DNA of 37,333 nt from Polyangiales bacterium. Its GTDB lineage: Bacteria; Myxococcota_A; Polyangia; Polyangiales; Ga0077539. The notes under the pieces were generated by a model. That model made no database searches and had not been told where the DNA came from. It saw nothing but the letters and a program-made list of their open reading frames with translations. Every line of letters begins with the position of its first letter. Within the stretch, counting starts at the first letter, position 1. This document shows, one piece after another, positions 7,913 to 32,057 of the stretch. A program made the translations under genes and the position numbers. The stretch is taken from assembly GCA_046351535.1 (NCBI GenBank), contig JAXLYG010000005.1:1-37333 (forward strand), in the 5' to 3' direction.

Positions 7913-7930
7913 CGATGTGTTTCTCCGCTC

Positions 7931-13422: not shown

Positions 13423-13467
13423 GGTCGTGCTCTCTCCTTTCGCGGTGTAACTGTGGGAGGGGGGACG

Positions 13468-18184: not shown

Positions 18185-18274
18185 GTCGCAGCGCGTTCAA
18201 CGCGGCGCGTGGCTCCGACGACGAACGCCGGCGGCGCTCACGCAAGCGCGCGATGCGGAGATAGACTCGGCGCC

Positions 18275-19438: not shown

Positions 19439-19600
19439 GGCGCTTCCGAGCGCGTATCCGAAACGCCGTGACCGCGCTCCACGCGGCGCGCGTCGAAGTG
19501 CCCCGGCGGTGCGCTCCGCGAGATGCCTCGCGAGCGCTACGAGCACCTCCGTGCCCGAAGCCTCTGGAAAATCATGCGTGTTTCGTGCACAACGCGCAGC

Positions 19601-20536
19601 ATGAACGTTTCCCGACTCAACGCTCCGCGCGGTACGCGCTGGAACGTCCTCTTCATGCTGACCGCACTCGGCGGGTCTGCTCTCCTTGCAGGCTGCGGTG
19701 ATTCCACGCCGACCACCACCCCGGACGCCGCCGCTGACACGGTGACGACCGACACGCCTGCGACCGACACGCCCGCGACTGACACGCCCGCGACCGACAC
19801 GCCCGCGACCGACACGCCCGCGACCGACACGCCCGCGACCGACGTGCCTGCGACCGACACGCCGGCCACCGACGTGCCTGCGACCGACACGCCCACCACC
19901 GACGTGCCCGTCACCGACACGCCTGCGACCGACACGCCTGCGACCGACACGCCTGCGACCGACACGCCCGCGACCGATGCGCCTGCGACCGATGCGCCTG
20001 CGACCGACGCTGCGACCGACGCCGCGACCGACGCCGCGACCGATGCGCCTGCGACGCCGACCTGCATGGCGTACTGCGCTGCGATCCAGAGCGCCTGCAC
20101 GGGCGACAACCAGCAGTACAGCTCGATGGAGTCCTGCCTCGGCGCGTGCGCCAACTTCGCCGTCGGAACCGCGGGCGCCACGTCGGGCAACACCCTCGCG
20201 TGCCGCACCTACCACGCGGGCGCCGCCGCGACGGGACCGGCCACCCACTGCACGCACGCCGGCCCCGGCGGCGACGGCCCCTGCGGCACCAACTGCGAGG
20301 GCTTCTGCACCATCGCGCAGGGCGTCTGCACCGGCGCGAACCAGCAGTTCGCCAGCATGGCCGTGTGCATGACGGCCTGCGCCGGCTTCGCCACGGGCAC
20401 CCGCTACAACAGCATGCAGACGTCGGGAAACACCTTCGCCTGCCGCCTCTATCACCTCTCGGTCGCCGCCTCGAGCGCAGCCTCGGCCACGACCCACTGC
20501 CCGCACATCGTCGCCGCGTCGCCCGTCTGCCGCTGA
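19601..20536 (+). CDS. Lipoprotein with an (A)TDTP pentapeptide tandem-repeat linker and two duplicated six-Cys C-terminal domains
   Basis: Signal MNVSRLNAPRGTRWNVLFMLTALGGSALLAGC (lipobox LAGC). About 21 TDTPA/TDVPA/TDAPA repeats. Two homologous ~75-aa Cys modules (C..YC..I...CTG.NQQ..SM..C...CA.FA.GT......SGNT.ACR.YH). Confidence 0.65.
   Translation: MNVSRLNAPRGTRWNVLFMLTALGGSALLAGCGDSTPTTTPDAAADTVTTDTPATDTPATDTPATDTPATDTPATDTPATDVPATDTPATDVPATDTPTTDVPVTDTPATDTPATDTPATDTPATDAPATDAPATDAATDAATDAATDAPATPTCMAYCAAIQSACTGDNQQYSSMESCLGACANFAVGTAGATSGNTLACRTYHAGAAATGPATHCTHAGPGGDGPCGTNCEGFCTIAQGVCTGANQQFASMAVCMTACAGFATGTRYNSMQTSGNTFACRLYHLSVAASSAASATTHCPHIVAASPVCR
19741..20060. repeat. Coding tandem repeat, 15-bp unit (accgacacgcc[c/t]gcg) x ~21 with degenerate 12-bp units at the 3' end
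   Basis: Directly visible periodicity gaccgacacgcccgcgaccgacacgcccgcg... encoding TDTPA. The antisense ORF 19537..20208 (SVAG repeats) is its mirror artefact. Confidence 0.8.
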
Positions 20537-20581
20537 GCGACAGCACCTCAGCCCCCATTCTCGCGGGCTGAGCGCCCCCCT

Positions 20582-21199
20582 TCACCCGCCGTCGAGACGC
20601 TGCGCTTCGAGCGTCGTGATCGTCAGCGAGTACCCCATCCAGCCGTTGCGAAACTCCACCACGCGCGGGGGCGTGTCGCCCTCCATGCCGCCCTCGTAGC
20701 GCACGTCGATGGTGCTCGCGGGAACGCCGTCGAGCCGTCGGAAGTGACGCTCCATGAGCCTCCCCGCGCGCCACACCTCGCGGATCTCTTCACCATCGCG
20801 CGTGCCTCTGCGCTCACCGTCGACGGCGGGCGCGGGGCCGAGCCCGATGAAGAGCGTGCGGTGGATGTCGAGCAGCATGTACCGCGGCGGAAAGGGGAGC
20901 TCGCCCGGCATGTGCGACGTGAAGCTCACCTCGGTTCCGCGCTGCTGGAGCACGAACGCGCGCGTGCCGAAGGGCGTGAGGCCGAGGAGCGTGAGCGTGT
21001 CTCCCTGCTTCTGGAGCACGGCGTCGAAGGACACGTCGCGCCCCGGATAGTGCGCCTCGACGCGCTGCCGAAACATGAACGCGCCGCGGATCTCCGACGT
21101 GGGGAGGAGCGTCCCCGGATGCGTCACGACAGGCATCGCGGGCGGCCGTCGCGAGGCGCACGCGAGCGCGAGACACGCGGCGAGGATCGATCGCTTCAC
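20582..21199 (-). CDS. DUF3261-like outer-membrane lipoprotein (aryl-polyene-cluster-associated), start at GTG 21199 overlapping the MMPL stop (GTGA)
   Basis: Internal start VKRSILAACLALAC gives lipobox ILAAC. About 205 aa mature protein. The upstream part of the listed ORF is junk overlapping the MMPL gene. Sits in a conserved MMPL/LolA neighbourhood. Confidence 0.5.
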   Translation of the reverse strand: MKRSILAACLALACASRRPPAMPVVTHPGTLLPTSEIRGAFMFRQRVEAHYPGRDVSFDAVLQKQGDTLTLLGLTPFGTRAFVLQQRGTEVSFTSHMPGELPFPPRYMLLDIHRTLFIGLGPAPAVDGERRGTRDGEEIREVWRAGRLMERHFRRLDGVPASTIDVRYEGGMEGDTPPRVVEFRNGWMGYSLTITTLEAQRLDGG

Positions 21200-23562
21200 G
21201 GTGACCTCCGCGCCGAGAGGAGGTGATGCGTGGCGGGCGCGAGCAGCATGCTGAAGGTGAGCCCGACGCCGGTGGTGAGCCCGATCGCGCGCAGCGACGG
21301 GTTCGACGACACCGCGAGGAGTCCGAACGAGAGCAGCGCCGAGGCCCACGCCACGGTCACGCTGAGCAGCGTCTCGGAGGTCGCCTCGGGGTGTCGCGTG
21401 GTCTCGGCCACGAAGATCCCATAGTCGACGCCGGTGCTCAGCACCATGAGCAGGCCGAGCAGGTGCATGAGGTTGGCGGGGATTCCGAGGAGGCCCACGA
21501 CGGCGATCGCGGTGGCGCCCGCGAGCACCGATGGGGCGAAGGCCGCGAGCGAGGTGCCGATCGTACGGTACCGAACGAACAGCATCAGGAGCACCGCGCC
21601 GAGCCCCGCGACGATGACCTCCAACGTGCGACGGCGATATCGCCCGTAGGTCTCGCGGAGAAAGAGCGACTGGTCGAAGTACGCCACGCCGTCGAGGTCG
21701 CCGACGCGCGCCGCCACGGCCCTCGCGTCACGCACGCCTTCGAGAAAGGTCAGATACCCCACGCGCTCCCCGACGCGCACGCGGAAGGGCCGCGCGAGCT
21801 CGATGAGGGGCGTGCGCGCAAGGGTCTCCCAGGTGAGCGCTTCGGGGGCGGGCTCTGCGAGCGCGCGGGTGAATCCGTCGAGCGCGCCCGCGCGAAATCC
21901 CTCGCGCTCGAAGGCCGCGGCGGCTCTCCCGGCGAGGCGAGGCGAGGCGCGCACGAGGTCCTCGTTGCGGCGTTGCAGATCGCGCGACCACAGCATCGCG
22001 TGAAGCGACCGGAAGGCCCGCACGTCACCCGCGGCGCGCGCGTCGGCGAGGCGCATCGCGACGCGGTCGTTGCGCTGGAGGGCCTCCTCATCGGTGGCGC
22101 CCGTGGCGATCACGAAGCGCCCCTCGTCGAGCCGCGAGACCAGCGCGCGGACCTCGCGCTCCTCGCGCATCATCGCGGGGTCGACCTCGGTGAGCGCGCG
22201 CGCGTCGTCGACCCAGCGCACCCGCGGAATCCCCACGACGCAGAGCAGGAGCGCCGTGAGGGGGACCACCAGCGCGAGGCCCCTCCGCCGTCGCAGCGCG
22301 TCGACCGCGCGCGTCACGGCGTCGGCCAGCGCGCGCTGAAACCTCACCGGGATGGGCTCCTTCGGGAGCAGCGGCGCCACGAGGTAGCGCGTCGCGAGGA
22401 GCGCCCCGCCGACGCCGAAGGTGGCGAACACGGCGATCTCGCGCAGCCCGGGGAAGCTCGTGTACGCGAGGCCCGCGAGGCCCGCCATCGTCGTGAGCGC
22501 GCCGAGCCGCACGGCGGGCCACACGCGCATGAGCGTCGCGTGCGGCCCCTCGGGCGACGGGCGCAGCGTGTGGTGGTTGATGAGAAACACCGGGTAGTCG
22601 AAGCACACGCCGATGAGCGACGCGCCGAACGCGAGCGTGAGCCCGTGCAGCTTGCCGAACACCGCGAGGCCCGCGGTCATCGCGACGAGCATCCCCGCGC
22701 CGAGCGGGAGCGACGCGAGCACGAGGTACCGCAGCGACCTGTGGATGAGCATGAAGAGCGCGACGACGCCCGCGGTCGAGAGGATCGAGATGCGCTCGGT
22801 GTCTCCGCGGATCTGCCCTTCTGCAGCGACGGCGATGCGATGCGCGCCGCTCTGTCGCAAGCGGAGCGCGTGGGCGTGGGCGCCGTTCACGCGCTCGAAG
22901 GCGCGGTTGATCGCGGCGATGAACGGGCGCTGTCGCGCGCCATCGAAGGCCGAGTGGCGCGTCGCGAGAAAGATCACGCCGTCGCGTCCGTCGGCGGAGA
23001 CGAACTGCCCGTCGCGCAGCGTGAGGGCGCCCGCCTGCGCGCTTCGAAGCCGCGTGAGCTCGGTGAGAAAGCCGAGGAGAGGGTCGCTCCCCGCGACGCG
23101 CGCGACGAGCGTTCCTGCGGGGGAGGCGAGCTGGCGTTTGACCTCGCGCGCGGCGTCGACGAGGCCCGCGTCGGTGAGCCTCGCGGGGAGTTCCTCTTCG
23201 GGTCGATCGGAGAGGAACGCGTGCCTCCGCGGGAACCACACGTCGTGGAAGGCGCGCTCCATCGAGGGGTCGACGCCCGCGCGCAGCCACGCCACCTCGG
23301 GGTTCGCGCGCAGCGCGTCGGCGAGCTCCCTCGCGGAGGTCGCGGCGGTCTCTGCGTCGGGCGCTCCGACGGCGAGCACCATCGTGCGAGAGAGCTCGCT
23401 CTCGGCCACGGCGCGCGAGACCCACGCGAGGCGCGCGTCCTCGCCCGCGGGGAGAAAGTGGGTGATCTCGTTGCCGACGCGCATCCGTCGCGCGGAGAAG
23501 ATCGCCATCGCGGCGAGGAGCGCGAAGCCCGCGATGAGCTGAGTGCGTTCTCGTCGTTGCAT
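21196..23562 (-). CDS. MMPL/RND-superfamily exporter (ApeM-like)
   Basis: 788 aa. Two hydrophobic 5-6 TM bundles (around LVLASLPLGAGMLVAMTAGLAVFGKL and LAAFAPSVLAGATAIAVVGLLGIP) separated by large soluble domains, as in MMPL family exporters. Confidence 0.75.
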   Translation of the reverse strand: MQRRERTQLIAGFALLAAMAIFSARRMRVGNEITHFLPAGEDARLAWVSRAVAESELSRTMVLAVGAPDAETAATSARELADALRANPEVAWLRAGVDPSMERAFHDVWFPRRHAFLSDRPEEELPARLTDAGLVDAAREVKRQLASPAGTLVARVAGSDPLLGFLTELTRLRSAQAGALTLRDGQFVSADGRDGVIFLATRHSAFDGARQRPFIAAINRAFERVNGAHAHALRLRQSGAHRIAVAAEGQIRGDTERISILSTAGVVALFMLIHRSLRYLVLASLPLGAGMLVAMTAGLAVFGKLHGLTLAFGASLIGVCFDYPVFLINHHTLRPSPEGPHATLMRVWPAVRLGALTTMAGLAGLAYTSFPGLREIAVFATFGVGGALLATRYLVAPLLPKEPIPVRFQRALADAVTRAVDALRRRRGLALVVPLTALLLCVVGIPRVRWVDDARALTEVDPAMMREEREVRALVSRLDEGRFVIATGATDEEALQRNDRVAMRLADARAAGDVRAFRSLHAMLWSRDLQRRNEDLVRASPRLAGRAAAAFEREGFRAGALDGFTRALAEPAPEALTWETLARTPLIELARPFRVRVGERVGYLTFLEGVRDARAVAARVGDLDGVAYFDQSLFLRETYGRYRRRTLEVIVAGLGAVLLMLFVRYRTIGTSLAAFAPSVLAGATAIAVVGLLGIPANLMHLLGLLMVLSTGVDYGIFVAETTRHPEATSETLLSVTVAWASALLSFGLLAVSSNPSLRAIGLTTGVGLTFSMLLAPATHHLLSARRSP

Positions 23563-23577
23563 CGGGGCGTCGGGGTC

Positions 23578-24303
23578 TCAGGGCGAGAGTCGAAAGACGC
23601 GCGCGGCCTCGTCGGGCGCGTATCTGCGCGCGGCGTCGACCTCGGTGAAGCGCGTCGAGGTCTCGTCTCCGCTCGTCTCTCGCAGGGTCATCGCGTCGAG
23701 GATCACGCCCGCGCCTCGGAGCTCGATGTCGCGGAACACGCGCTGAATGGTGGCCACGCGAGGACGGAGCGTGAGCGTCCACGCCTCGGGACGCTGCGCG
23801 TCGGGGACGCGAAAATCGATCTCGTAGCTCCGCTCCAGGGCCGCACGATCGCCCGCGACGAGCGCGAGAAAGCTGTCGACGAACTGCCGCACCACGGGCG
23901 TCGCGTTCATGTCGATCGACTGCTCTCCGCGGCCATCCCCGAAGCGGAGGTGAGAGCCCTCGATGAGCACCGTCGAGGGCGCGGGCGTCGCGGTGCGACG
24001 CACGAGGCGAGAGGGCGGCGCGTAGTCGAGGGTCCCTTCGCTCACGAGCGGCGCGGCGAGGAGCTGCACGCGCTTCTCTTCGCGAAACCGCGCGTGGAGA
24101 CCGGGCACCGCGGCGAAGCGGCGGAGCAGCGCGTCGAGCGTCACGGGCGCGGCCACGGGCGCCGCGGGCGCGACGGGCGCGGTCACGGGCGTGCGGGTCG
24201 GACGGTTGCGCGGAGGGCGACGCGGCTGCGACGACGCGAGCGCCGAGAGGGCCACGAGCGACAGCGCGAGCGCGCTACGCGACGATGCGGGAACGGATGG
24301 CAT
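23578..24303 (-). CDS. LolA-like outer-membrane lipoprotein carrier family protein (ApeL-like)
   Basis: Signal peptide MPSVPASSRSALALSLVALSALASS. About 240 aa. Position between the MMPL exporter and thioesterase matches APE-type clusters. Confidence 0.55.
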   Translation of the reverse strand: MPSVPASSRSALALSLVALSALASSQPRRPPRNRPTRTPVTAPVAPAAPVAAPVTLDALLRRFAAVPGLHARFREEKRVQLLAAPLVSEGTLDYAPPSRLVRRTATPAPSTVLIEGSHLRFGDGRGEQSIDMNATPVVRQFVDSFLALVAGDRAALERSYEIDFRVPDAQRPEAWTLTLRPRVATIQRVFRDIELRGAGVILDAMTLRETSGDETSTRFTEVDAARRYAPDEAARVFRLSP

Positions 24304-24670
24304 CGGGGGTCTCCATGAGCAGCTCGCCGGCGGGCGTGGTGGTGACGAGGACGGTGCGCGCCCGCGCGACGCGGCGGTCGTGCGTGACGCTGTGGAGGTC
24401 GTAGAAGACCACGATGCGCTGCTCGACGTCGCCGAAGCGCGCCGTCACGCGCACGCGCTCGCCGTAGCGCAACGGGCGCATGTAGCGGCAGTGCGCGTCG
24501 ACGACCATCATGTGAAGGCCGAGCTCCATGAGGTCGGGCACGTCGAGGCGGTGGACGCGCATGAGCTCGGTGCGCGCGAGCTCGAGGTACTTGAAGTAGT
24601 TGCCGTGCCACACGACGCGCAGCCCGTCGACGTCGTGAAAGGGCACGGTGAGCTCGATGGAGGCGCTCAC
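24275..24670 (-). CDS. Hotdog-fold acyl-CoA/acyl-ACP thioesterase (4HBT/YbgC-like)
   Basis: About 131 aa from GTG start VSASIELTVPFHDVD...HGNYFKYLE, with conserved Asp and HGN typical of 4HBT thioesterases. GTGA overlap with the upstream acyltransferase stop. The longer listed ORF's N-terminus is Arg-rich junk. Confidence 0.6.
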   Translation of the reverse strand: MSASIELTVPFHDVDGLRVVWHGNYFKYLELARTELMRVHRLDVPDLMELGLHMMVVDAHCRYMRPLRYGERVRVTARFGDVEQRIVVFYDLHSVTHDRRVARARTVLVTTTPAGELLMETPDAIRSRIVA

Positions 24671-25575
24671 GGCGAGGGCCTCCAGAAGTCGTAGAAGTTG
24701 AACCAGTTGTCGGGCGCGAGGCGGCAGTAGTGCTCGAGGCGCTCGGCGTAGCGGCGCGCCCACGCGGCGAGGGAAGCGTCGCGGTCGCGTCGATCGACCA
24801 CGAGCGGATCGGCGAAGGGCTCGCAGTAGAGGTCGTAGCGATCGGGCTCGGTGAACACGCCGAAGGTGAGGAACACCGGGCACCGCAGCGACGACGCGAG
24901 CAGGTACGGCCCCACGGGGAAGAGCGCCTTTCCGCCGAGAAAATCGATCTCCGCGGTGCGCGCGTTGAGGCCCGTGCGGTCGGCGAGGAGCGCGACGAAC
25001 TCGCCCCTCTCGACGCGCTCCTTGAGCGCGAGGATGTAGTCGAAGCCCTCGGGCTCGATCTCGACGACGCGCGTCGACGCCTCGGGGTTCACGGCCGCGA
25101 GCGCCGCGTTGATCATCTTCGCGTTGCGAAAGTACCCGACGATGTTGACCGCGAAGTCGCGGCTGCGCCCCTGGGCGCGCATCGCTTCGAAGCTCCCGAG
25201 GTGCGCGCCGATGAGCACGGCCCCTCGGCCCGCCTCACGCGCCGCGCGGAGGTGCTCGGTGCCGTGGCTCTCGATGGTGAAGAGGTCGCGCCGCCCCTTG
25301 AGCAGAAAGAACCGATCGAGCGCGCAGTGCGCGAAGGTCAGCACGTGGCGGTACACGTCACCGAGCGAGGCGCCGCCGCGGACGCGCGTGAGGTAGTCGC
25401 GCGAGCACCGCCGCACGCGCCCGTGGAGCCCCACGTAGTACACGCACAGCGCCGCGAGGAAGAGCCGCGCGGGGCCGCGCCCGAAGGCCGTGCAGAGCCA
25501 CACGACGAAGCGGATGCCGAGCACCGCGCCCTTCTCGCGCGTCTCGAGCCAGCCCTTCGGCGCGTCGTCGCTCAC
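24667..25575 (-). CDS. LpxL/HtrB-type lipid A biosynthesis acyltransferase family protein (lysophospholipid acyltransferase)
   Basis: Real start VSDDAPKGWLETREKGAVLGIRFVVWL at GTG overlapping the GT2 stop (GTGA). TM anchor then acyltransferase domain. The first 91 aa of the listed ORF overlap the upstream gene and are junk. Confidence 0.6.
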   Translation of the reverse strand: MSDDAPKGWLETREKGAVLGIRFVVWLCTAFGRGPARLFLAALCVYYVGLHGRVRRCSRDYLTRVRGGASLGDVYRHVLTFAHCALDRFFLLKGRRDLFTIESHGTEHLRAAREAGRGAVLIGAHLGSFEAMRAQGRSRDFAVNIVGYFRNAKMINAALAAVNPEASTRVVEIEPEGFDYILALKERVERGEFVALLADRTGLNARTAEIDFLGGKALFPVGPYLLASSLRCPVFLTFGVFTEPDRYDLYCEPFADPLVVDRRDRDASLAAWARRYAERLEHYCRLAPDNWFNFYDFWRPSP

Positions 25576-26309
25576 GGCGCCGCCTCCCGTCGCGGCGCGA
25601 AGAAGCGCGCGATGCGGGTGAGCATGAGCCGCGTGTGCATCCAGCTGATGAGGGCGTTGTCGCGCACCATGCGAAAGTGCGACACGCCGCCGTCTTCGCG
25701 CGAGATGTAGCGCACGCGCGTCGGGAGGTTGATCACCGGGACGCCCGCCCACACCATGCGCACGGCGATCTCGGGGTCGAAGTCCATCGCGTCGCCGCGG
25801 GTGTTCGACGCGAGGGCCGCGCGCAGCGGGTACACGCGAAAGCCGCACATGGGGTCGGCGATCACGGGTCCGCCCGCCTCGACGTTGGTCCAGAAGCGGG
25901 TGATCTCGCGCGCGGCGCGCCGTGATTTGGGCGCGCTCTCGTCGAAGACGGGCTGCCCGAGCACCAGCGCCTCGGGCCTCTCGCGCGCGGCTTCGAGGAA
26001 GCGCGGGATGTCTTCGAAGGTGTGCTGTCCGTCGGCGTCGACCTGGAGCGCGTGCGTGTACCCGAGCGCGAGCGCGGCGCGGAAGCCGTCCTTCACGGCG
26101 GCTCCCTTTCCCCCGTTCTGCGCGCGTCGGTGGAGGTGCGCGAGGCCCTCCGAGGCGATGGCGTCGAGCACGGCGCGGGCCTCGGGTCCGCTGCCGTCAT
26201 CGACGACGACGACGTCGCCGAGGTGCTCCCGCGCGCGCTCGACGACGGCGCGCACGGTGGCGGGGTTGTTGTACGTGGGGATGAGCACGCAGGGCTTGAA
26301 CTCGCTCAC
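25572..26309 (-). CDS. Family 2 glycosyltransferase (ApeJ-like)
   Basis: MSEFKPCVLIPTYNNPATV...VVVDDGS...QVDADGQH: GT-A fold DxD/DAD motifs. 245 aa. Confidence 0.7.
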   Translation of the reverse strand: MSEFKPCVLIPTYNNPATVRAVVERAREHLGDVVVVDDGSGPEARAVLDAIASEGLAHLHRRAQNGGKGAAVKDGFRAALALGYTHALQVDADGQHTFEDIPRFLEAARERPEALVLGQPVFDESAPKSRRAAREITRFWTNVEAGGPVIADPMCGFRVYPLRAALASNTRGDAMDFDPEIAVRMVWAGVPVINLPTRVRYISREDGGVSHFRMVRDNALISWMHTRLMLTRIARFFAPRREAAP

Positions 26310-26677
26310 GGCGAAGCCTCTCCGAAATGGAGGGTCCCCGCCGAGGCGACGCCTCCTCCGAGCTCGATGACGAAGGCGACGGCGGCGCGCGCGCGGGTGT
26401 GTTCGAGGCGCAGCGAGAGGTCGTCGCCGGGCCTGATGGGCTTGTGAAACTTGAGCTTCGTCGCGCGTCGGAGCGGGGGCATCGCGGGCCAGGCCCGATG
26501 AACGAGCGGCAGCACGAGGTTGTTCAACTGCGCGACGGCGGGTAGCACCGGGTCTCCCTCGAAGTGCCCGAGGAAGTAGCAGAGCCCCGCGGGGACGTGC
26601 ACCGCAAAGTCCGCGCGCGCCACGCCGTCGGCCTCGCTCTGCGCCTCGCTGCGCACCTCGAACGCGCGCTCATCCAT
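26306..26677 (-). CDS. FabA/FabZ-like hotdog 3-hydroxyacyl-ACP dehydratase (ApeI/ApeP-like)
   Basis: Start MDERAFEV. Motif LCYFLGHFEGDPVLPAVAQ matches the FabZ F-x-GHFP-x-x-PV-xPGV motif. About 123 aa. The upstream 67 aa of the listed ORF are Arg/Ser junk. Confidence 0.6.
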   Translation of the reverse strand: MDERAFEVRSEAQSEADGVARADFAVHVPAGLCYFLGHFEGDPVLPAVAQLNNLVLPLVHRAWPAMPPLRRATKLKFHKPIRPGDDLSLRLEHTRARAAVAFVIELGGGVASAGTLHFGEASP

Positions 26678-27305
26678 CGCGCACCGCCGTCTCGGTGATG
26701 GGCGGAAAGAGCCTCGCCATGAGCCTGTCGTGGGGCGCGTTCCCGTAGCGCCTGAAGCGCATCGAGCGGAGCACGTACTCCACCGTGAACATCGCGCCGA
26801 GGAGCCCATACGAGAGCGCGCCCGTGTAGAGCGCCCACCACGCGACGGGCGCCGCGAGCGCGAGCACCGCGGAGACAACAGCGTTCACGGCGAAGAACAC
26901 ACACCACGCGACGGTGACCTTGCGACACCACGCTCTCTCGGGCTCCGAGAGGGTCGCGACCTGCATCCTCGCGAAGCGCTCGATGATCGGGGTGTCTCCG
27001 CGGAGCGTCGCGGCGAAGTGAACGAGCATCGCGGCGTTCACGAGCGAGGGCATCGCGAGCATGAAGCGCGCGTCGCGGAGCACCGCGGCGCACAGGGCCA
27101 GCGCGCCGATCGTGAGAGGGACCCGCAGCGCGTGGGCGAGGTCGTCGCGGCGGGCGTTCTTCGCGGCGACGAGGGCGCGCGGGACGGCGACGACGAGCAC
27201 GGCGAGGCCCACGGCGCGCGGACCCCAGCGGGTCACGCCGAGGTACACCGCGAAGGGGTACGCGAGCGTGGCGAGCACGCGGAGTGCGATCGCGAGCGCG
27301 CGCAT
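26670..27305 (-). CDS. Polytopic membrane protein of unknown function (ApeA-like position)
   Basis: 211 aa from MRALAIALRVLATLAYPFAVYL with 5-6 hydrophobic helices. Remainder of the listed 463-aa ORF is off-frame junk overlapping the halogenase gene. Confidence 0.5.
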   Translation of the reverse strand: MRALAIALRVLATLAYPFAVYLGVTRWGPRAVGLAVLVVAVPRALVAAKNARRDDLAHALRVPLTIGALALCAAVLRDARFMLAMPSLVNAAMLVHFAATLRGDTPIIERFARMQVATLSEPERAWCRKVTVAWCVFFAVNAVVSAVLALAAPVAWWALYTGALSYGLLGAMFTVEYVLRSMRFRRYGNAPHDRLMARLFPPITETAVRDG

Positions 27306-27325
27306 CTGCGTAGGGCGGAGTCCCT

Positions 27326-28519
27326 TCAGCTCGCGAGAGACGCCGCGCGATGGGCTTCCCAGGAGCGCACCATCGAGGCGAGCTCGCCCATGCGGTCGGC
27401 CATGTCGTGCGGCGAGCGCCGCGTGGTGTTGTACACGTCGCCCGCGAGGAGCGTCACGATCCCCATGCGCAGGTAGGGCTTCTGGAGCTCGCGCGGCGCG
27501 AGCGCGACGGTCATGAAGTCGTCGGCGTACCAGTGGTCGATGACCTTGCGGAACACGCTCGCGCCGTCGCAGTACTCGCGCTGCCACGCGTCGAGGTCGC
27601 CGCCGTCGAGGGCCGCCGCGAGCTGGCGCGCGCCGTAGAGCCCGAGCAGCACGCCGGAGCTGAACACCGGGTCGATGAAGGTCGCCGCGTCGCCGCAGAG
27701 CGCGAAGCCCTCGCCGTGAAACGTCGTCGAGGTCGCGGTGTAGTCCTGCACGCCGCGGAAGGGGAAGAGCCGCTCGGCCTCGTCGAGCCGCGCCGTCGCG
27801 TCGGGCGACATGGCGATGGCGGCCTTGAAGCGCTCCTCCGCGGTGCCCTTGAGCGGACACGACGGAGACATCACCACGCCCACCGAGGCCACGCCTCCGC
27901 CGAAGGGAATGATCCAGATCCAGCCGCCGGGGATGCAGCAGATCGTGATGTCGCCGGGCTGGTCGGGCGCGAGCTGCTTGACGCCCTTGCAGCGCGTTCC
28001 GATGGCGGCGTTCTTGAGCCGCGCGTCGCCCACGCGCAGGCCGAGCTTGCGAGAGAGCCACATCGTGCGACCGCCCGCGTCGATGATCCGCTCGCCCGTG
28101 AGCGAGCCCGCGGAGGTGTCGAGCCGCCGCGCGGCCACGTCGGCGTCGCGCGCCTCGCCGTACACGATGCGGCAGCCGGCGGCGCGCGCGGCGTCACGCC
28201 AGCGGAGGTCGAAGACCTCGCGCTGCACCTGCCACGCCCACTTGTAGCGAACGGCCTCGGCCTCGGAGAAGTCGAAGCGCACCGACGCGCCGTCGCGGCA
28301 GAACACGGCGCCGTGCTTGACGATGAAGCCGCTCATGTCGAGGCCGCACTCTTCGAAGATGAGCGTCGAGCCGGGGAGCATCGACTCGCCGACGACGCTC
28401 TCGGGACGCTCGACGGACTCGACGAGCGTCACCTTCGCGCCGCGCTTCGAGAGGTAGGTGCCGAGGGCGCACCCCGTGGGGCCTGCGCCGACGATGACGA
28501 AATCGCTCGTGAGGGTCAT
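27326..28519 (-). CDS. Flavin-dependent halogenase (tryptophan-halogenase-like FAD enzyme)
   Basis: FAD-binding VIVGAGPTGCALG (GxGxxG). Halogenase-diagnostic WxWxIP motif (GGWIWIIPF). C-terminal FxxPxxSxG (FIDPVFSSG). 397 aa. Confidence 0.7.
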   Translation of the reverse strand: MTLTSDFVIVGAGPTGCALGTYLSKRGAKVTLVESVERPESVVGESMLPGSTLIFEECGLDMSGFIVKHGAVFCRDGASVRFDFSEAEAVRYKWAWQVQREVFDLRWRDAARAAGCRIVYGEARDADVAARRLDTSAGSLTGERIIDAGGRTMWLSRKLGLRVGDARLKNAAIGTRCKGVKQLAPDQPGDITICCIPGGWIWIIPFGGGVASVGVVMSPSCPLKGTAEERFKAAIAMSPDATARLDEAERLFPFRGVQDYTATSTTFHGEGFALCGDAATFIDPVFSSGVLLGLYGARQLAAALDGGDLDAWQREYCDGASVFRKVIDHWYADDFMTVALAPRELQKPYLRMGIVTLLAGDVYNTTRRSPHDMADRMGELASMVRSWEAHRAASLAS

Positions 28520-28767
28520 GTCGCTCCTTGGAGGTTCTTCGCGACGAGGTCGACGAGGTCGGCCACCGTGCGGATCTTTCGGAGCTCGCGCTCCTCGACG
28601 CGGCGGCCGGTCATCTCCTTGACCTTGACGGCCATGTCGATGGCGTCGATGGAGTCGAGCTCGAGGTCTTCGTAGAGCCTCGCGTCGAGGCGCACGGCGT
28701 CGGGGTCGACCTCGAAGCGGTCGACGAGCGTGCGGGCCATCTCGGCGAAGATCTGCTCGCGGTTCAT
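28516..28767 (-). CDS. Acyl carrier protein (ApeE/ApeF-like) 1
   Basis: 83 aa from MNREQIFAEM. Phosphopantetheine-attachment motif LELDSIDAIDM. ATGA overlap with the halogenase start. Confidence 0.7.
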   Translation of the reverse strand: MNREQIFAEMARTLVDRFEVDPDAVRLDARLYEDLELDSIDAIDMAVKVKEMTGRRVEERELRKIRTVADLVDLVAKNLQGAT

Positions 28768-29030
28768 TTGCCAGCCGGACGGTGCGCCGCGACGTGGGCC
28801 GCGAGGGCGCGCACCGAGGCGAAGATCGCGCGGTTGTTCTCGTCGTCGGCGCGGAGCTTCACGCCGTAGCGCCGCTCGACGGCCATCGCGAGCTCGAGGG
28901 CGTCGATGGAGTCGAGGCCGAGGCCGGTGCCGAAGAGGGCTGCGGCGCTGTCGATCTCCTCGGGACGCACGCTGTCGAGCATGAGTGACTCGACGATCAG
29001 CCGCTTCATTTCGAGTTCGAGGTCTTCCAT
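28764..29030 (-). CDS. Acyl carrier protein 2
   Basis: 88 aa. LGLDSIDALELAMAVE Ser-attachment motif. 4-nt overlap with ACP 1. Confidence 0.75.
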   Translation of the reverse strand: MEDLELEMKRLIVESLMLDSVRPEEIDSAAALFGTGLGLDSIDALELAMAVERRYGVKLRADDENNRAIFASVRALAAHVAAHRPAGK

Positions 29031-29036
29031 GGCGGA

Positions 29037-29870
29037 TCAGGCTTCTACTCCCTCTTTGGGCGCATCGGAAGGCGCTGCGGGGACGTCCTCCGGGTGCGCC
29101 GCCCGCCAGGCGTCGAGGCGCGCGCGGTACATCTCCTGCGCGGCCTTCGCGAGGCGCCGCGCGTCGCCGTCGAAGTCCTCGGGGCGCAGCGTGGCGATGG
29201 GCTCGACCGCGAGCCGCACGAGGCGCTTGGGCAGCGCGTACCAGGGGACGCCCTTCATCAACGTGGGCGGCGTACACGTCACGAGCACGAGCGCCACGGG
29301 CACGCCGGCCCTGCACGCGACCTCGAAGGCTCCGCGCCTGAAGCGCCTCACCCCGCCGGGCGGAGAGCGCGTCCCCTCGGGGAAGATCAGCACGCGGAAG
29401 CCCGCCTCGATGCGCTCGATCGCGCCCTGAATCACCGCCGCGCCCGACATCGCGGCGCCCTCTCCCGCGTCGATGTGCCAGCACGCGCGGAGGATCCGTC
29501 CGACGAAGGGGTTCTCGAAGAGGTCGCTGCGCACGACGGTGCACGCGCCGCCGAGGGCTGCGCCGAGGGCCGTCACGTCGACCAGCGTGGGGTGATTCGC
29601 CACGACCACGCAGGGTCCCTCGGGGAGGCTCAGCGACACCTCGCGCGGGTCGTACCGCATGAGCCGCAGGTGGTGCATGAGCGCGTGAAACTGCTTGAAT
29701 CCACGGCTGATGAGGCTCTGCGCGCGGCGCACGCGCTCGCGCTCGTCGGTGACGCCGCGGCGCGCGAGCGGCAGGAGCGCGTACGACAGCACCAGCGATC
29801 CGACGCCGAAGTACACGAACATCGCGCCGATCAAGACGAGGCGTACGATCCATTCGAGGGGGCGCAGCAT
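29037..29870 (-). CDS. PlsC-type 1-acyl-sn-glycerol-3-phosphate acyltransferase family protein
   Basis: N-terminal TM helices. HxxxxD acyltransferase motif (VVANHPTLVDV). FPEGTRS motif III. Confidence 0.7.
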   Translation of the reverse strand: MLRPLEWIVRLVLIGAMFVYFGVGSLVLSYALLPLARRGVTDERERVRRAQSLISRGFKQFHALMHHLRLMRYDPREVSLSLPEGPCVVVANHPTLVDVTALGAALGGACTVVRSDLFENPFVGRILRACWHIDAGEGAAMSGAAVIQGAIERIEAGFRVLIFPEGTRSPPGGVRRFRRGAFEVACRAGVPVALVLVTCTPPTLMKGVPWYALPKRLVRLAVEPIATLRPEDFDGDARRLAKAAQEMYRARLDAWRAAHPEDVPAAPSDAPKEGVEA

Positions 29871-29921
29871 CGGCGTGTCGTCCAGCGCGGCGCGAGTGAT
29901 ATCACACGCGCTCCGCGGCCG

Positions 29922-30749
29922 TCAGCGACACAGGCGCAGCGCGCCCAGGCGCCCCGAGGCGCAGCGGACCTCGTGTTCGAAGCGCGCTTCTCGGGAAGGG
30001 TCATCGAGCCACGCGGCGAGCTCCACCGCGCCCGACGCGCCGAGCCAGTCGGGGTGCGCGTCGTCGCCGCCGTCGTGCGCACGGAGCGAAGCGTGTTCGA
30101 GCGTCGCGAGGGGCGCACGGCCGCGCGCGCGTACGGCCTCGACAGGTTCGAGCACGAGCGCGACGACGGCCTCCGCGGCAGCGGGTTGCGCGCGTTCGGA
30201 GCGCAGCCGCGCGCGGTCGGGGCCGAGGGTGTCTCCCGCGATGACGAGGGCTCCCTCTGCGCGGCCGAGGGCGATGGCGCGACGGGCCTCGACGAGCGCG
30301 GCGACGGCCGACGCGCGCCCTGCCATCACGGTCGTCGCGTGGCCTCTCACGCCGAGCGCGATGGCGATCTCGCCCGCGGGCGCCGACGGAATCGTCTGCG
30401 CGAAGAGGATCGGGGATGCCCCCTCGGCGCCGCGCTCCACGAGCCCGCGGTGGTATCGCTCGTTGACCTCGGCACAACCGAGCGCGGTGCCCACCACGAC
30501 GGCGAGCGACCGCACGCGATCGGCTTCAATCTCCGCGCGAGAGAGCGCCCGCTGCGCCACGAGGAGCGCGTGGGCGCTCGCGCGATCCATGCGACCCGTG
30601 CGCTCGGGCGCGGCGGGCCAGAGCGCGCGAATGGAGGCCGTGATGCGCGAGGTCTTCACGCCGTCGACCTCGGCCCAGCGCGGCGCGCGCGGAGCCCCTT
30701 CGCCTGCGGCCGAGAGCGCGGCCCACGCGGTGATCGCGAGGTCGCTCAC
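29922..30749 (-). CDS. Beta-ketoacyl synthase-like chain-length-factor-type protein (no obvious active-site Cys); start at GTG 30749 overlapping the KS stop
   Basis: About 275 aa from VSDLAITAWAALSAAG. Thiolase-fold-like sequence (VVVGTALGCAEV...GVRGHATTVMAG) lacking the T-A-C-S/T catalytic context. The upstream 35 aa of the listed ORF are junk. Confidence 0.55.
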   Translation of the reverse strand: MSDLAITAWAALSAAGEGAPRAPRWAEVDGVKTSRITASIRALWPAAPERTGRMDRASAHALLVAQRALSRAEIEADRVRSLAVVVGTALGCAEVNERYHRGLVERGAEGASPILFAQTIPSAPAGEIAIALGVRGHATTVMAGRASAVAALVEARRAIALGRAEGALVIAGDTLGPDRARLRSERAQPAAAEAVVALVLEPVEAVRARGRAPLATLEHASLRAHDGGDDAHPDWLGASGAVELAAWLDDPSREARFEHEVRCASGRLGALRLCR

Positions 30750-31936
30750 GGGGCACCGATCACGAGCGCGGTGTTGTGTCCCGCCATCGCGGCGTTGAGC
30801 GAGAGCGCGACGCCCTCTCGCATCGCCGTGGGCGCGGGGTCGACGGTGAGCCACGCGAGCGAAGGGTCACGCTCCCGCGGCGTGTGCGTCGGCGGACGTA
30901 CGCGGTGACGCAGCGCCTCGACGCAGAGCGCGACCTCGACGAGCCCCGAGGCGCCGAGGGTGTGTCCCGTCACGGGCTTCAAGCCGTGTACGGGCGGCGC
31001 CGTGTCGCCGAAGACCGCTCGCAGCGCGGCGGCCTCCATCGCGTCGTTGAAGCGCGTCGAGGTCGCGTGCGCGCTCACCCACGCGACGTCGGCGTTCGAT
31101 GCGTTCGCCTCGCGCAGCGCGTGTGTGACGGCCCGCGCGAGCCCGGCCCCCGTGCGATCGGGCGCGGTCATGTGAACGCCGTCGCCCGAGGTTCCGCCGC
31201 CGAGGTAGCGCGCCACCGCGGGGCCGTCGCGCGTGAGGAGCACCGCGGCCGCGGCCTCGCCGAGCCACATGCCCGCGCGATCCACGGCGAAGGGAGCGGG
31301 CGGCGCCGTGTCGGGCGTGAGCGCGCAGAGCCGATCGAAGCCCGCGTGGACGAAGCGGCAGAGCACATCGACGCCGATCACCAGCGCGGCGTCGATCTCG
31401 CCGAGCCGCAGCGCGTCGGCGGCCTGCATGAGCGCGGCTGCCGAAGAGGTACACGCGGTGCTCACGGTGACCACCTCGCCGCGAAGTCCGAGGGCGCGCG
31501 CCACGGCGGGCGCGGTGTCGTCGTGGCCCACGCGCGAGGGCGCGACGGGAAGCGCCTCTCCGCGCGTGAGGGCGCGGTGCCAGGGCTCCCACGCGACGAC
31601 AGCGCCGAGGCTCGTCCCGACGAAGAGGGCGGTGTCGGGCGAGAGCGCTTGACCGCGGAGCGCGTCGTCGACGGCGGCGAGCGCGAGCTGCGTGGCGCGG
31701 TCGAGGCCGGGCCAGCGCGCGTCGATGGCGGCCCAGATCGACGGCGCGATGAGGGCCGCGTTGCGCACCGCGAAATCGTGGGTGTCGTAGCGGTCGACGG
31801 GGGCGGCGAGGGGCGCGGCGGCGAGGGTGGCGCGCCAGAGGGCGTCGAGGCCCACGCCCGCGGCGGAGACCGCGCCGACGCGACGGATCGAGAGCGGCGC
31901 GCGCGCGTGTGTGGCGTCGGGCTTCTCGTGGGTCAT
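30746..31936 (-). CDS. Beta-ketoacyl-ACP synthase (type II KS, ApeO/ApeR-like)
   Basis: 396 aa. Active-site Cys in VSTACTSS. His residues in GDGVHMTAP and GHTLGASG. C-terminal GHNTALVIG. Confidence 0.8.
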   Translation of the reverse strand: MTHEKPDATHARAPLSIRRVGAVSAAGVGLDALWRATLAAAPLAAPVDRYDTHDFAVRNAALIAPSIWAAIDARWPGLDRATQLALAAVDDALRGQALSPDTALFVGTSLGAVVAWEPWHRALTRGEALPVAPSRVGHDDTAPAVARALGLRGEVVTVSTACTSSAAALMQAADALRLGEIDAALVIGVDVLCRFVHAGFDRLCALTPDTAPPAPFAVDRAGMWLGEAAAAVLLTRDGPAVARYLGGGTSGDGVHMTAPDRTGAGLARAVTHALREANASNADVAWVSAHATSTRFNDAMEAAALRAVFGDTAPPVHGLKPVTGHTLGASGLVEVALCVEALRHRVRPPTHTPRERDPSLAWLTVDPAPTAMREGVALSLNAAMAGHNTALVIGAP

Positions 31937-32057
31937 CGGCGGGGTGCCGGCGACGCTACGACCGCGCGAAATGCGGCGTCAACGGAGACCCTCGGACGAA
32001 GGCCGCCGGGTCGCTGGCGGCGCAGCGAGAAACCGCGCAGAATCCCGGGCTGCGCTT
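31937..32057. promoter_or_regulatory. Divergent intergenic region between the KS operon (minus) and a lipoprotein gene (plus)
   Basis: 121-nt gap between divergent starts. Likely contains the promoter of the long minus-strand biosynthetic operon. No motif confidently identified. Confidence 0.25.

Follow-up and report, generated by a model that had tools for sequence, protein, structure and literature searches.

The window, a stretch of 37,333 nucleotides from an uncultured myxobacterium (Polyangiales), carries at positions 20582-31936, on the minus strand, a single operon of 14 tightly coupled genes, arranged as apeO-apeC-apeD-apeE-apeF-FDH-apeG-apeI-apeJ(GT2)-apeJ(acyltransferase)-apeK-apeL-apeM-apeN. 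The names refer to the ape (aryl polyene, APE) genes, and FDH is a flavin-dependent halogenase homologue (percentages are identities):

30746..31936, minus: elongating ketosynthase (KS), ApeO-like, 396 aa; PF00109 and PF02801; reciprocal best hit of E. coli ApeO, 37%
29922..30749, minus: chain-length-factor (CLF)-like half-KS, ApeC-type, 275 aa; PF00109 and PF13723, N-terminal half only
29037..29870, minus: PlsC/LPLAT acyltransferase, ApeD-like, 277 aa; PF01553; reciprocal best hit of ApeD, 32%
28764..29030, minus: acyl carrier protein (ACP), ApeE-type, 88 aa, DSI serine; PF00550; 54% to ApeE
28516..28767, minus: ACP, ApeF-type, 83 aa; PF00550; 46% to ApeF
27326..28519, minus: FDH homologue, 397 aa; PF04820
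26670..27305, minus: ApeG-like integral membrane protein, 211 aa; 32% to E. coli ApeG, E = 2e-20, reciprocal
26306..26677, minus: hotdog dehydratase, ApeI-like, 123 aa; PF07977 (FabA) above cut-off, PF22818 (ApeI-like) below
25572..26309, minus: GT2 glycosyltransferase, 245 aa; PF00535; 47% to ApeJ residues 4-238 (N-terminal half)
24667..25575, minus: LpxL-type acyltransferase, 302 aa, HX4E; PF03279; 32% to ApeJ residues 250-550 (C-terminal half)
24275..24670, minus: 4HBT hotdog thioesterase, ApeK-like, 131 aa; PF13279 and PF03061; 35% to ApeK, reciprocal
23578..24303, minus: LolA-like periplasmic carrier (LolA_3), ApeL-like, 241 aa; PF19574 and PF03548; 28% to ApeL, reciprocal
21196..23562, minus: MMPL/RND-type exporter, ApeM-like, 788 aa; PF03176; 25% to ApeM over 742 residues
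20582..21199, minus: DUF3261 protein, ApeN-like, 205 aa; PF11659; partial ApeN match, 32% over 60 residues

Nine gene junctions overlap, seven of them as 4-nt start/stop overlaps (ATGA or GTGA) and the other two by 8 and 29 nt. The CLF gene starts at a GTG (30749) that forms a GTGA overlap with the KS stop codon, the ApeF-type ACP gene shares an ATGA with both the upstream ApeE-type ACP gene and the downstream FDH gene, and the ApeN-like gene, which closes the operon, has a GTG start (21199). All 14 reading frames are intact and retain their catalytic motifs. An earlier sequence-only reading had listed this gene set; its observation is confirmed, each listed gene lying on the minus strand at the coordinates given and having a Pfam match above the curated cut-off. 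The ApeG-like gene (26670-27305) had been missed. Pfam and NCBIfam assignments together cover 14/14 genes, the ApeG-like protein through weak IspA and VC0807-family matches. Several other long ORFs were rejected as genes because they are high-GC shadow ORFs, among them one of 445 aa (28516-29853) and one of 1031 aa on the plus strand (21223-24318).

The KS has its active-site cysteine in TACTSS and, by alignment, the downstream histidines in HATST and GHTLG; it scores 229 bits against NCBIfam PRK09185, below cut-off. The CLF has neither the catalytic cysteine nor the C-terminal KS domain, and reads AGRAS where the KS has TACTS, in alignment with SAGRD of ApeC at the KS cysteine position. BLAST pairs it weakly with ApeC (E = 0.12), and its placement rests on PF13723 and gene position. 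The ApeE-type ACP (113 bits, PRK09184, cut-off 70) and the ApeF-type ACP (101 bits, PRK05350, cut-off 65) both exceed their NCBIfam cut-offs. The ApeD-like acyltransferase carries an HX4D motif (HPTLVD), and the ApeI-like dehydratase, a reciprocal best hit of ApeI (25%, E = 4e-8), a FabZ-type GHF...P motif. Among the export proteins, the N-terminus of the ApeL-like protein is signal-peptide-like, that of the ApeN-like protein is hydrophobic and contains a cysteine, and the ApeM-like exporter matches ApeM reciprocally (E = 2e-39).

Across the operon, dN/dS is 0.16 in comparison with a MAG locus that is 93-99% identical (L008), which denotes purifying selection; the corresponding value for FDH is 0.18. 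An identical gene order is found, at 50-75% identity, in four further loci (L009, L025, L026 and L029).

A reduced relative of the ape cluster

The ape cluster of E. coli CFT073 (c1186-c1204), which together with that of Xenorhabdus doucetiae is among the closest known systems, served as reference for reciprocal BLASTP. Twelve operon proteins are reciprocal best hits of E. coli ApeO, ApeD-ApeG and ApeI-ApeN (25-54% identity, ApeJ being counted as two genes), and apeD to apeN are colinear. Both clusters pair a KS-CLF of type II with ACPs in tandem, use acyltransferases for lipid anchoring and export through LolA, MMPL and DUF3261 proteins, and the apeC to apeN order is common to both, the ApeC match being weak. 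The operon differs in having no ApeA, ApeB, ApeH, ApeP, ApeQ or ApeR. Its apeO precedes apeC, whereas E. coli apeO follows apeN; ApeJ, a fusion in E. coli, is divided between separate, translationally coupled GT2 and LpxL-type genes; and FDH lies between apeF and apeG, where E. coli has none.

Among the window ORFs scanned there is no ketoreductase (KR; ApeQ), second dehydratase (ApeP), initiating KS (ApeR), aryl-acid:ACP ligase/loader (ApeH/XanA2/ArcT type), ammonia-lyase, chorismatase or flavin reductase. The ApeI-like dehydratase is alone, unlike Xenorhabdus ApeI, which reportedly acts in complex with ApeP (Grammbitter et al. 2019). ApeQ and ApeH homologues are also absent within ~10 kb of FDH in all 23 related loci, which come from MAGs mostly labelled Polyangiales or Myxococcota, so that supply in trans is assumed rather than seen. 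Since KR, loader and starter functions are absent, neither a polyene nor an aryl head can be read from the operon alone: a true aryl polyene must obtain its aryl starter, loading enzyme, initiating KS, KR and second dehydratase in trans. A precedent for genes located elsewhere is the Azoarcus arc pigment, whose genes form two unlinked loci, both essential, with a halogenase homologue included (PMC3949708).

These results support the sequence-only interpretation in part. It had recognized the architecture of APE, xanthomonadin and flexirubin clusters, and the 12 reciprocal ape hits do mark a true relative, but one in which the KR, ApeP, ApeR, ApeH-type and starter genes are absent. The halogenated aryl polyene that it proposed is not supported as worded, because both the polyene and the aryl head depend on functions in trans.

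The halogenase homologue

The FDH carries GAGPTG (GxGxxG), GES...K68, W200-x-W202-x-I-P205 (WxWxIP, in GGWIWIIPF) and F281-x-D-P-x-x-S-x-G289 (FxxPxxSxG, in FIDPVFSSG), and K68 aligns with CmlS K71. W200, W202, P205, F281, D283, P284, S287, G289 and K68 are invariant among 28 homologues (57-91% identity). WxWxIP and the lysine distinguish halogenases from flavin monooxygenases. A geranylgeranyl (GG) reductase identity was rejected, as profile, PDB and fold scores all favour halogenases: 143 bits with the CmlS model versus 94 with the GG-reductase model, and, among PDB sequences, 151 (3NIX), 123 (CmlS) and 116 bits (PltA) versus 35 for the GG-reductase-type 3OZ2, with Mpy16, ChlB4, CndH and Bmp2 also matched. 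The top 39 Foldseek matches of the AlphaFold model (pLDDT 91) are 3NIX, an uncharacterised flavoprotein, and then named halogenases, all of FDH fold; the best are 3NIX (TM 0.87), ChlB4, FasV, PltA, Mpy16, CmlS and Bmp2. The earlier choice of a halogenase over a GG reductase is thus upheld: by sequence, motifs and modelled fold the flavoenzyme belongs to the halogenase family and looks genuine, and halogenation is its predicted activity. It is only ~30% identical to any FDH of a complete APE cluster, no nearer than it is to PltA or CmlS, and is not assigned as the orthologue of a pigment halogenase in particular; no biochemically characterised halogenase from an APE-type cluster was found in the accessible literature.

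In all of the 23 related loci whose contig extends that far (every one except L015), an ACP gene lies immediately upstream of FDH and an ApeE-type ACP is always among the ACPs on that side. The ACP directly upstream is ApeE-type in most relatives and ApeF-type in the window. The start/stop overlap of the FDH and ACP genes is as expected of an enzyme working on a tethered substrate; the substrates of PltA, Mpy16 and Bmp2 are carrier-protein-bound. Near FDH, two Polyangiales relatives have ApeR-like and ApeP-like genes (L029) or an ApeB-like methyltransferase (L016, 40% identity). One locus (L005) has a minimal KS-CLF-ApeD-ACP(-ACP)-FDH block without export genes, and two (L010, L011) have a shortened block without KS-CLF. 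FDH homologues of ~31% identity occur inside complete APE/flexirubin-type clusters that have an AMP-ligase, KR and ApeP (L003 from Nevskia; L033), one of which, L033, includes an aromatic ammonia-lyase.

Proposed pathway and alternatives

An ape-family pathway for lipid synthesis and export is the best reading of the operon, and probably the right one: a single 14-gene unit, a reduced and rearranged relative of the ape cluster, that would halogenate an ACP-bound intermediate and receive the missing steps in trans. Its proposed mechanism is modelled on the systems of Xenorhabdus and E. coli (gene roles: bioRxiv 10.1101/2020.12.19.423268; PMC8253772). The KS-CLF pair would lengthen an acyl chain with malonyl units on the ApeE/ApeF-type ACPs. 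The chain would become conjugated and polyene-type through the ApeI-type dehydratase and a ketoreductase encoded outside the operon, either housekeeping FabG or one from a second locus. FDH, supplied with FADH2 by an unlinked flavin reductase, might then chlorinate or brominate an electron-rich ACP-tethered intermediate. The most likely carrier would be the ApeE-type ACP, the bearer of the aryl chromophore in Xenorhabdus (bioRxiv 10.1101/2020.12.19.423268; PMC8253772). ApeK, ApeD and the split ApeJ may place the chain(s) on a glycerophospholipid or sugar anchor, and ApeG, ApeL, ApeM and ApeN may carry the lipid to the outer membrane. An aryl head group on the product is plausible. Points against this reading are the genes missing from the window and from the 23 loci, the ApeI-like dehydratase without an ApeP partner, the distance of the FDH from those of complete APE clusters, and an Azoarcus paper that is silent on halogen in arcuflavin.

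A product without an aryl group is a less likely possibility. The KS-CLF and ACPs would make either a fatty-acyl chain that is conjugated or beta-oxygenated, resembling the conjugated C26:5 acyl group in the APE lipids of Xenorhabdus, or a KR-less poly-beta-keto chain cyclising to a phenolic/pyrone head; FDH would halogenate the chain on the ACP, ApeD would transfer it straight to phospholipid, and ApeG/L/M/N would export it. The absence of the ApeH-type loader, aryl-starter enzymes and KR from the window and all 23 loci is consistent with this, as are the minimal L005 block, the L010/L011 blocks, the coupling of the window FDH to the ApeF-type ACP, and the deposition of CmlS, a close structural relative, as an alkylhalidase. 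APE lipids moreover include a non-aryl conjugated acyl chain, with proposed synthesis on ApeF and transfer by ApeD (bioRxiv 10.1101/2020.12.19.423268). Against it, the aryl-chain carrier type, ApeE rather than ApeF, adjoins FDH in most relatives, L016 has an ApeB-like ring methyltransferase, the KS is an ApeO reciprocal best hit, and the nearest FDHs outside the Polyangiales clade lie in clusters with an aromatic ammonia-lyase or AMP-ligase.

It is rather more doubtful that the product is a non-halogenated ape-type lipid, the flavoenzyme being inactive at natural halide, performing cryptic halogenation only, or catalysing another flavin-dependent oxidation. Lake waters are halide-poor, and the source MAGs have lake-derived names; no flavin reductase gene lies nearby, and the protein that matches best in structure (3NIX) is a 'flavoprotein/dehydrogenase' that is itself uncharacterised. 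Halogenase homologues are also found in the Azoarcus arc and Variovorax clusters (PMC3949708; PMC3691225, Fig. 5 legend), and the Azoarcus paper, which lists the homologue in the arc cluster, does not mention halogen in arcuflavin (PMC3949708). On the other side, xanthomonadins are brominated where the cluster includes a halogenase gene (PMC3691225), and all four FDH signature features, among them the WxWxIP and lysine that mark halogenases off from flavin monooxygenases, are kept in a gene maintained under selection. That the operon is a product-less, decaying remnant of a formerly complete APE cluster is very improbable: five genes held core or essential in one published definition are absent (apeH, apeP, apeQ, apeR and starter supply), but intact frames and motifs, translational coupling, the dN/dS and the recurrence of the same reduced gene set in divergent Polyangiales MAGs (L008, L009, L025, L026, L029) all argue against decay.

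Comparison with known systems

On the preferred reading, a trimmed APE-type operon with a genuine-looking halogenating flavoenzyme, the locus is a credible though rather ordinary starting point for finding a halogenated lipid pigment of the outer membrane. Its novelty for the lineage, asserted in the sequence-only reading, holds in part, as APE clusters in marine myxobacteria had been reported from genome mining (PMC6226438) and xanthomonadin-type clusters with halogenase genes were already known (PMC3691225, PMC3949708).

With xanthomonadin-type clusters (Xanthomonas pig, Azoarcus arc, Nevskia L003) the operon shares a KS and half-size CLF, ACPs, the halogenase homologue, PlsC- and LpxL-type acyltransferases, GT2, thioesterase, LolA, MMPL exporter and DUF3261 protein (PMC3691225; PMC3949708). 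Those clusters have an AMP-ligase (XanA2/ArcT type), KR and ApeP-type dehydratase, whereas the window has none of the three, nor the XanB2 chorismatase of Xanthomonas and Azoarcus. The Nevskia FDH, 32% identical, lies between the PlsC- and LpxL-type genes, the window FDH after the ACPs. Flexirubin-type clusters supply the closest FDH outside the Polyangiales clade, P0081 of the Bacteroidota locus L033 (177 bits, 31%). The other close one is the flavoprotein 3NIX of Cytophaga hutchinsonii. L033 resembles the operon in its KS, CLF, ACPs, LpxL, thioesterase, LolA and ApeI-like genes, has an ApeP-like gene, and has in addition an aromatic ammonia-lyase, AMP-ligase, KR and O-methyltransferase. The general ORF scans of the window brought up no DarA/DarB (dialkylresorcinol) genes. 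With the carrier-protein-dependent halogenases PltA, Mpy16, Bmp2, CndH and ChlB4, and with CmlS, the FDH shares its fold, the motif for FAD binding, WxWxIP, FxxPxxSxG and the catalytic lysine, at 24-29% identity by Foldseek; it is shorter, at 397 aa, than PltA, CmlS and CndH. Its partner in the operon is not an NRPS-type carrier but an ACP of the type II PKS/FAS kind, within a lipid pathway.

Gene content of the operon

Because the window is about 71% G+C, long spurious ORFs occur in all its frames. Coding frames were resolved by third-position GC analysis together with the translations, which left a single series of minus-strand genes running from 31936 to 20582. In order of transcription, Pfam and NCBIfam identify a complete ketosynthase (KS), a half-size KS, a PlsC-type acyltransferase, two acyl carrier proteins (ACPs), a Trp_halogenase-family flavoprotein and a small membrane protein, then a FabA/ApeI-like hotdog dehydratase (DH), a GT2 protein, an LpxL-type protein, a 4HBT thioesterase (TE), a LolA-like protein, an MMPL protein and a DUF3261 protein. 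The half-size KS (275 aa, PF13723) adjoins the KS and lacks the catalytic Cys; it is referred to here as the chain-length-factor-like protein (CLF). Start-codon analysis revealed 4-nt ATGA or GTGA overlaps at seven junctions (KS/CLF, ACP/ACP, ACP/FDH, DH/GT2, GT2/LpxL, LpxL/TE and MMPL/DUF3261, where FDH is the flavoprotein gene) and overlaps of 8 and 29 nt at two more; the genes from 31936 to 20582 constitute one operon. The gene set proposed in the sequence-only reading is borne out, the membrane protein being the one gene which that reading had not listed.

The catalytic motifs are intact: the KS Cys in TACTSS, PlsC HX4D, LpxL HX4E, GT2 DxD, the DS serines of the ACPs and the GHF motif of the hotdog DH. 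A 445-aa ORF across the ACP/PlsC region (28516-29853) was rejected as a frame artefact by GC3 frame analysis and Pfam, being coding only in its last 83 codons, which belong to the second ACP, while PlsC and the first ACP sit in another frame. No confidently conserved Gln of the window CLF corresponds to Q166, the essential Gln of Lysobacter ORF16 (PMC3691225), the alignment with ApeC and the CLF of a Nevskia cluster being too divergent. A scan of 20200-32300 returned no sigma-70 promoter-like site, and intrinsic terminator-like sites at chance level.

The operon proteins were compared by BLASTP, in both directions, with those of the aryl polyene (APE) cluster of E. coli CFT073. Reciprocal best hits were obtained for the KS with ApeO (37% identity), PlsC with ApeD (32%), the first ACP with ApeE (54%), the second ACP with ApeF (46%), the membrane protein with ApeG (32%), the hotdog DH with ApeI (25%), the thioesterase with ApeK (35%), LolA with ApeL (28%), MMPL with ApeM (25% over 742 residues) and, as a partial match, DUF3261 with ApeN. 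The N-terminal half of ApeJ corresponds to the GT2 protein (47%) and its C-terminal half to the LpxL-type protein (32%), again as reciprocal best hits, while the CLF matches ApeC weakly (E = 0.12). Both ACPs exceed the NCBIfam cut-offs of their types, PRK09184 (ApeE) and PRK05350 (ApeF). The window therefore contains the KS-CLF pair (ApeO with ApeC), the tandem ACPs (ApeE with ApeF) and ApeM accompanied, in the same order, by ApeG, ApeL, ApeN and the attachment enzymes ApeD, ApeJ and ApeK. The E. coli order apeC-D-E-F-G-(H)-I-J-K-L-M-N is kept, with four differences: apeO precedes apeC, ApeJ is encoded by two separate coupled genes, apeH is missing, and the FDH gene is inserted between apeF and apeG.

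Flanking genes

The genes on either side have no relation to the operon: upstream, a divergent lipoprotein-like gene, a Ser/Thr kinase and an MFS transporter; downstream, a repeat-rich secreted protein, a patatin and type VI secretion genes. The predicted secreted protein (19523-20536), encoded on the plus strand, opposite to the operon and next to its downstream end, contains a tandem repeat (19746-20055) in which a 15-nt unit for (T/A)DTPA occurs about 21 times, followed by a duplicated Cys-rich C-terminal segment. The genes at 6248-16301 on the minus strand are a partial type VI secretion gene set:

14550-16301, minus strand, TssF
13468-14586, minus strand, TssG
10741-13422, minus strand, ClpV-like double AAA+ ATPase
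9135-10610, minus strand, FHA protein with a T6SS_FHA_C domain
7931-9145, minus strand, 404-aa protein with no Pfam match
6248-7912, minus strand, 554-aa protein with weak VipA and VipB matches in one polypeptide

The 554-aa protein could represent a fused sheath protein. At 2670-5429 on the minus strand, a 919-aa UvrD_C_2/AAA helicase-like protein, whose long N-terminal region lacks any assignment, overlaps the stretch of lowest GC in the window (64-67% at 3001-6000, against about 71% elsewhere), which may be acquired DNA. Three genes stand in a row at 3-2199:

3-722, plus strand, fragment of a NAT-family N-acetyltransferase
774-1106, plus strand, carboxymuconolactone-decarboxylase-family protein
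1153-2199, plus strand, radical SAM protein with a DUF3641 C-terminal domain

The flavoenzyme

The sequence-only reading had assigned the 397-aa FDH protein (27326-28519) to the flavin-dependent halogenases, a call that would fall if the protein belonged with non-halogenating reductases such as geranylgeranyl (GG) reductases. Its PF04820 match exceeds the Pfam cut-off. Among NCBIfam models the CmlS halogenase scores 143 bits against 94 for the GG-reductase superfamily, both below their family cut-offs. Ranked by sequence, its PDB matches are 3NIX (a Cytophaga hutchinsonii flavoprotein, 151 bits), CmlS, PltA, Mpy16, ChlB4, 8ZOP (FasV, deposited simply as 'Halogenase'), CndH, Bmp2 and RadH; the archaeal GG-reductase-like structure 3OZ2 reaches 35 bits, against 115-151 for 3NIX, CmlS and PltA.

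The motifs agree. In an alignment with 28 homologues (57-91% identical), the GxGxxG FAD-binding motif (GAGPTG, residues 11-16) is conserved in at least 90%. W200, W202 and P205 of WxWxIP (W200-I-W202-I-I-P205) are invariant, as are F281, D283, P284, S287 and G289 of FxxPxxSxG (F281-I-D-P-V-F-S-S-G289). So too is K68, which in the PDB sequence search lines up with the KxGA/KxSA lysine of 3NIX, CmlS and PltA. The CmlS residue is numbered K71 here after subtraction of what I presume to be a 20-residue tag.

The AlphaFold model (pLDDT 91) was compared with the PDB using Foldseek. All of the top 39 chains are flavin-dependent halogenases or 3NIX; the best is 3NIX (TM 0.87), and 33 further halogenase chains follow it before the first non-halogenase. 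Squalene epoxidase ranks 40th and a GG-reductase-like protein 48th. The reductase alternative thus fails on HMM, PDB, motif and fold evidence alike, and the halogenase assignment stands because bit scores, motifs and fold all favour it. By these measures FDH belongs to the PltA/CmlS/Bmp2 branch of the halogenase family, with halogenation as its predicted activity. Its exact sequence had no record in the assembly index; literature searches found no work treating 3NIX together with halogenase, and nothing usable on halogenation of Variovorax aryl polyenes.

Related Polyangiales loci

The FDH family is densely populated at 56-99% identity and, after a gap, contains a few members at 40-44% and many at or below 35%. 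A scan of species-representative genomes yielded 23 related loci, all from metagenome-assembled genomes (MAGs), most of them labelled Polyangiales or Myxococcota and many of lake-metagenome origin. Two records, L012 and L024, are titled Klebsiella pneumoniae and Bifidobacterium breve; their FDHs are 71-74% identical to that of the window and their loci are of Polyangiales type, and these labels are probably wrong.

The closest relative, L008 (contig JBPOHC010000424.1), has the same 14 genes and flanks at 93-99% protein identity, and the gene order of the window is kept at 50-75% identity in L009, L025, L026 and L029. L029 also encodes proteins resembling ApeR and ApeP, along with a second KS-CLF pair. 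Shorter versions exist: L005 consists of KS-CLF-ApeD-ACP-FDH, and L010 and L011 of ApeD-ACP-ACP-FDH, each followed by unrelated genes. A common arrangement (L001, L007, L012, L014 and L016-L019; FDH at about 10001-11170) begins with an ApeE-type ACP, FDH, DUF2062, a polysaccharide deacetylase, an ApeO-like KS of about 550 aa and a hotdog DH, and continues with an amine-oxidase/phytoene-desaturase-like flavoprotein, an ApeR-like KS and an ApeF-type ACP; in loci long enough to show it, a divergent gene for a GT2+LpxL fusion (ApeJ-like) lies nearby. L001 and L007 further encode a PF03417-matching protein longer than 1300 aa, and L016 an ApeB-like methyltransferase (40% identity). Wherever the contig extends far enough, an ACP gene directly precedes FDH; in L005 and in the common arrangement this ACP is of the ApeE type, which bears the aryl chromophore in Xenorhabdus (bioRxiv 10.1101/2020.12.19.423268).

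In the stretch 6684-7793 of L009, a tblastn scan requiring at least 50% query coverage found, after GT2, ape-type matches to the thioesterase only and no LpxL-type match between; only a short part of the contig follows. Some members may therefore do without the acyltransferase half of ApeJ or encode it elsewhere. L010 contains an O-methyltransferase of the caffeoyl-CoA type (PF01596) together with an AMP-binding enzyme (12970-15313), some 8 kb downstream of FDH and separated from it by a penicillin-amidase-family gene and a TSP3-repeat protein; the methyltransferase and the AMP-binding enzyme might process an aromatic acid.

Functions missing from the operon

The core of an ape cluster has been defined as apeO, apeR, apeE, apeF, apeC, apeI, apeP, apeQ and apeM (Grammbitter et al., bioRxiv 10.1101/2020.12.19.423268). 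A Pfam scan of the window ORFs and BLASTP revealed no ApeR, ApeP, ApeQ, ApeH, ApeB, ammonia-lyase or chorismatase in the window, and since unrelated genes bound the operon on both sides, these gaps are not an accident of the window edge. Three scanned ORFs (17227-18264, 18209-19438 and 34492-35898) had no Pfam match at all. The sequence-only reading, which had matched the operon to the architecture of APE, xanthomonadin and flexirubin clusters, was largely right but overstated the likeness to complete APE-type clusters, ApeR, ApeP, ApeQ and ApeH being absent.

Ketoreductase (KR), ApeH, ApeP, ApeR and ApeB were sought by tblastn with E. coli and Nevskia queries in the window and 30 fetched loci. 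No Polyangiales locus contained a KR or ApeH, the ApeE-FDH-DUF2062 loci included, and ApeH matched Nevskia loci only. For ApeQ, the window ORFs had no SDR/KR Pfam match and tblastn was null in the window; across the 23 related loci there was no full-length match and one weak partial one (27% over 114/243 residues, L015), and, that match aside, no homologue of either ApeQ or ApeH lay less than about 10 kb from FDH in any of the 23. Instead of the dehydratase pair ApeI and ApeP the window has an ApeI-like protein only; among the related loci, L029 alone has an ApeP homologue. The initiating KS ApeR is likewise absent from the window. Its only KS genes in the general Pfam scan, which identified no DarA/DarB dialkylresorcinol genes of the flexirubin type either, encode the ApeO-like protein and the CLF-like half-KS. 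ApeR-like KS genes (40-42% identity by tblastn) are present in other Polyangiales loci.

As to starter supply, the scanned window ORFs included no AMP-binding protein that could act as an aryl-acid:ACP ligase (the role of ApeH, which loads 4-hydroxybenzoate), no XanB2-type chorismatase (3-HBA/4-HBA supply) or XanA2-type AMP-ligase and no aromatic ammonia-lyase (PF00221). The AMP-binding genes near L010 and L026 were rejected as loaders: they resemble general acyl- or acetyl-CoA synthetases and stand apart from the cluster. The window also has no flavin reductase gene.

Proposed pathway and alternatives

I favour, at somewhat better than even confidence, an ape-type lipid pathway with halogenation on the ACP and, more probably than a non-aryl one, an aryl head group. 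The KS-CLF pair would elongate a chain on the ApeE- and ApeF-type ACPs, and the ApeI-type DH, with a KR supplied in trans, would introduce conjugated unsaturation. FDH, fed by an unlinked flavin reductase, would halogenate an electron-rich ACP-tethered intermediate. ApeK, ApeD and the split ApeJ would then join the chain or chains to a glycerophospholipid or sugar anchor, and ApeG, ApeL, ApeM and ApeN would carry the lipid to the outer membrane; attachment and export are modelled here on the functions suggested for the systems of Xenorhabdus and E. coli (bioRxiv 10.1101/2020.12.19.423268; PMC8253772).

An aryl head is the likelier case because FDH is paired with an ApeE-type ACP, because a relative has an ApeB-like methyltransferase, and because outgroup FDHs lie in aryl-polyene clusters, though the operon has no linked starter-loading enzyme. 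A halogenated acyl lipid of non-aryl type, in keeping with that gap, is an unlikely alternative. A product that carries no halogen despite the FDH homologue seems less likely again. That the cluster is a decayed remnant is highly improbable, its frames being intact and its sequence under purifying selection (dN/dS against L008 of 0.16 for the operon and 0.18 for FDH).

A more radical proposal, which I regard as doubtful, is that freshwater Polyangiales use KS-CLF, LPLAT, ApeE- and ApeF-type ACPs and FDH as a self-sufficient module that needs neither an aryl starter nor a dedicated KR, the ape export set either adjoining it or lying elsewhere. The product would be a polyketide-type acyl chain (conjugated, beta-oxygenated or cyclised to a phenolic head), halogenated on the ACP and installed directly in outer-membrane phospholipid; such a halogenated membrane lipid class would be distinct from aryl polyenes.

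Should the favoured ape-type reading hold, the outer membrane of uncultured Polyangiales, represented by MAGs with lake-derived names, is decorated with a halogenated lipid of ape type, halogenated APE-like pigments reach beyond Xanthomonas-type Proteobacteria and Bacteroidota, and enzymology gains a compact FDH, 397 aa long and coupled to an ACP. The FDH-bearing Polyangiales loci examined consistently lack both a KR and an aryl loader, so that the main question is how the pathway runs without a linked KR or starter loader. A modest, testable form of it is how far primary fatty-acid synthesis or a second locus can stand in for parts of an ape pathway.

Comparison with known clusters

At 31-32% identity, the FDH family recurs within complete clusters. 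That of Nevskia (L003) comprises an AMP-ligase, KS-CLF, ApeI, ApeP, KR, GT2, thioesterase, LolA, MMPL and DUF3261, and a distant flexirubin-type locus (L033) an aromatic ammonia-lyase (PF00221), an AMP-ligase, KR, an O-methyltransferase, KS-CLF, LolA and ApeI. Xanthomonas pigment clusters contain halogenase genes, while the non-brominated Lysobacter cluster does not (PMC3691225). The Azoarcus arc genes, which include a halogenase homologue, occupy two unlinked loci, each of them essential (PMC3949708), and genome mining has reported APE clusters in the marine myxobacteria Enhygromyxa and Plesiocystis (PMC6226438). Since the cluster family and the presence of halogenase genes within it are already described, the finding is incremental: the Polyangiales operon is a variant of a well-known cluster family in an uncultured lineage, and its accessory enzyme, too, has precedents among the members of that family.
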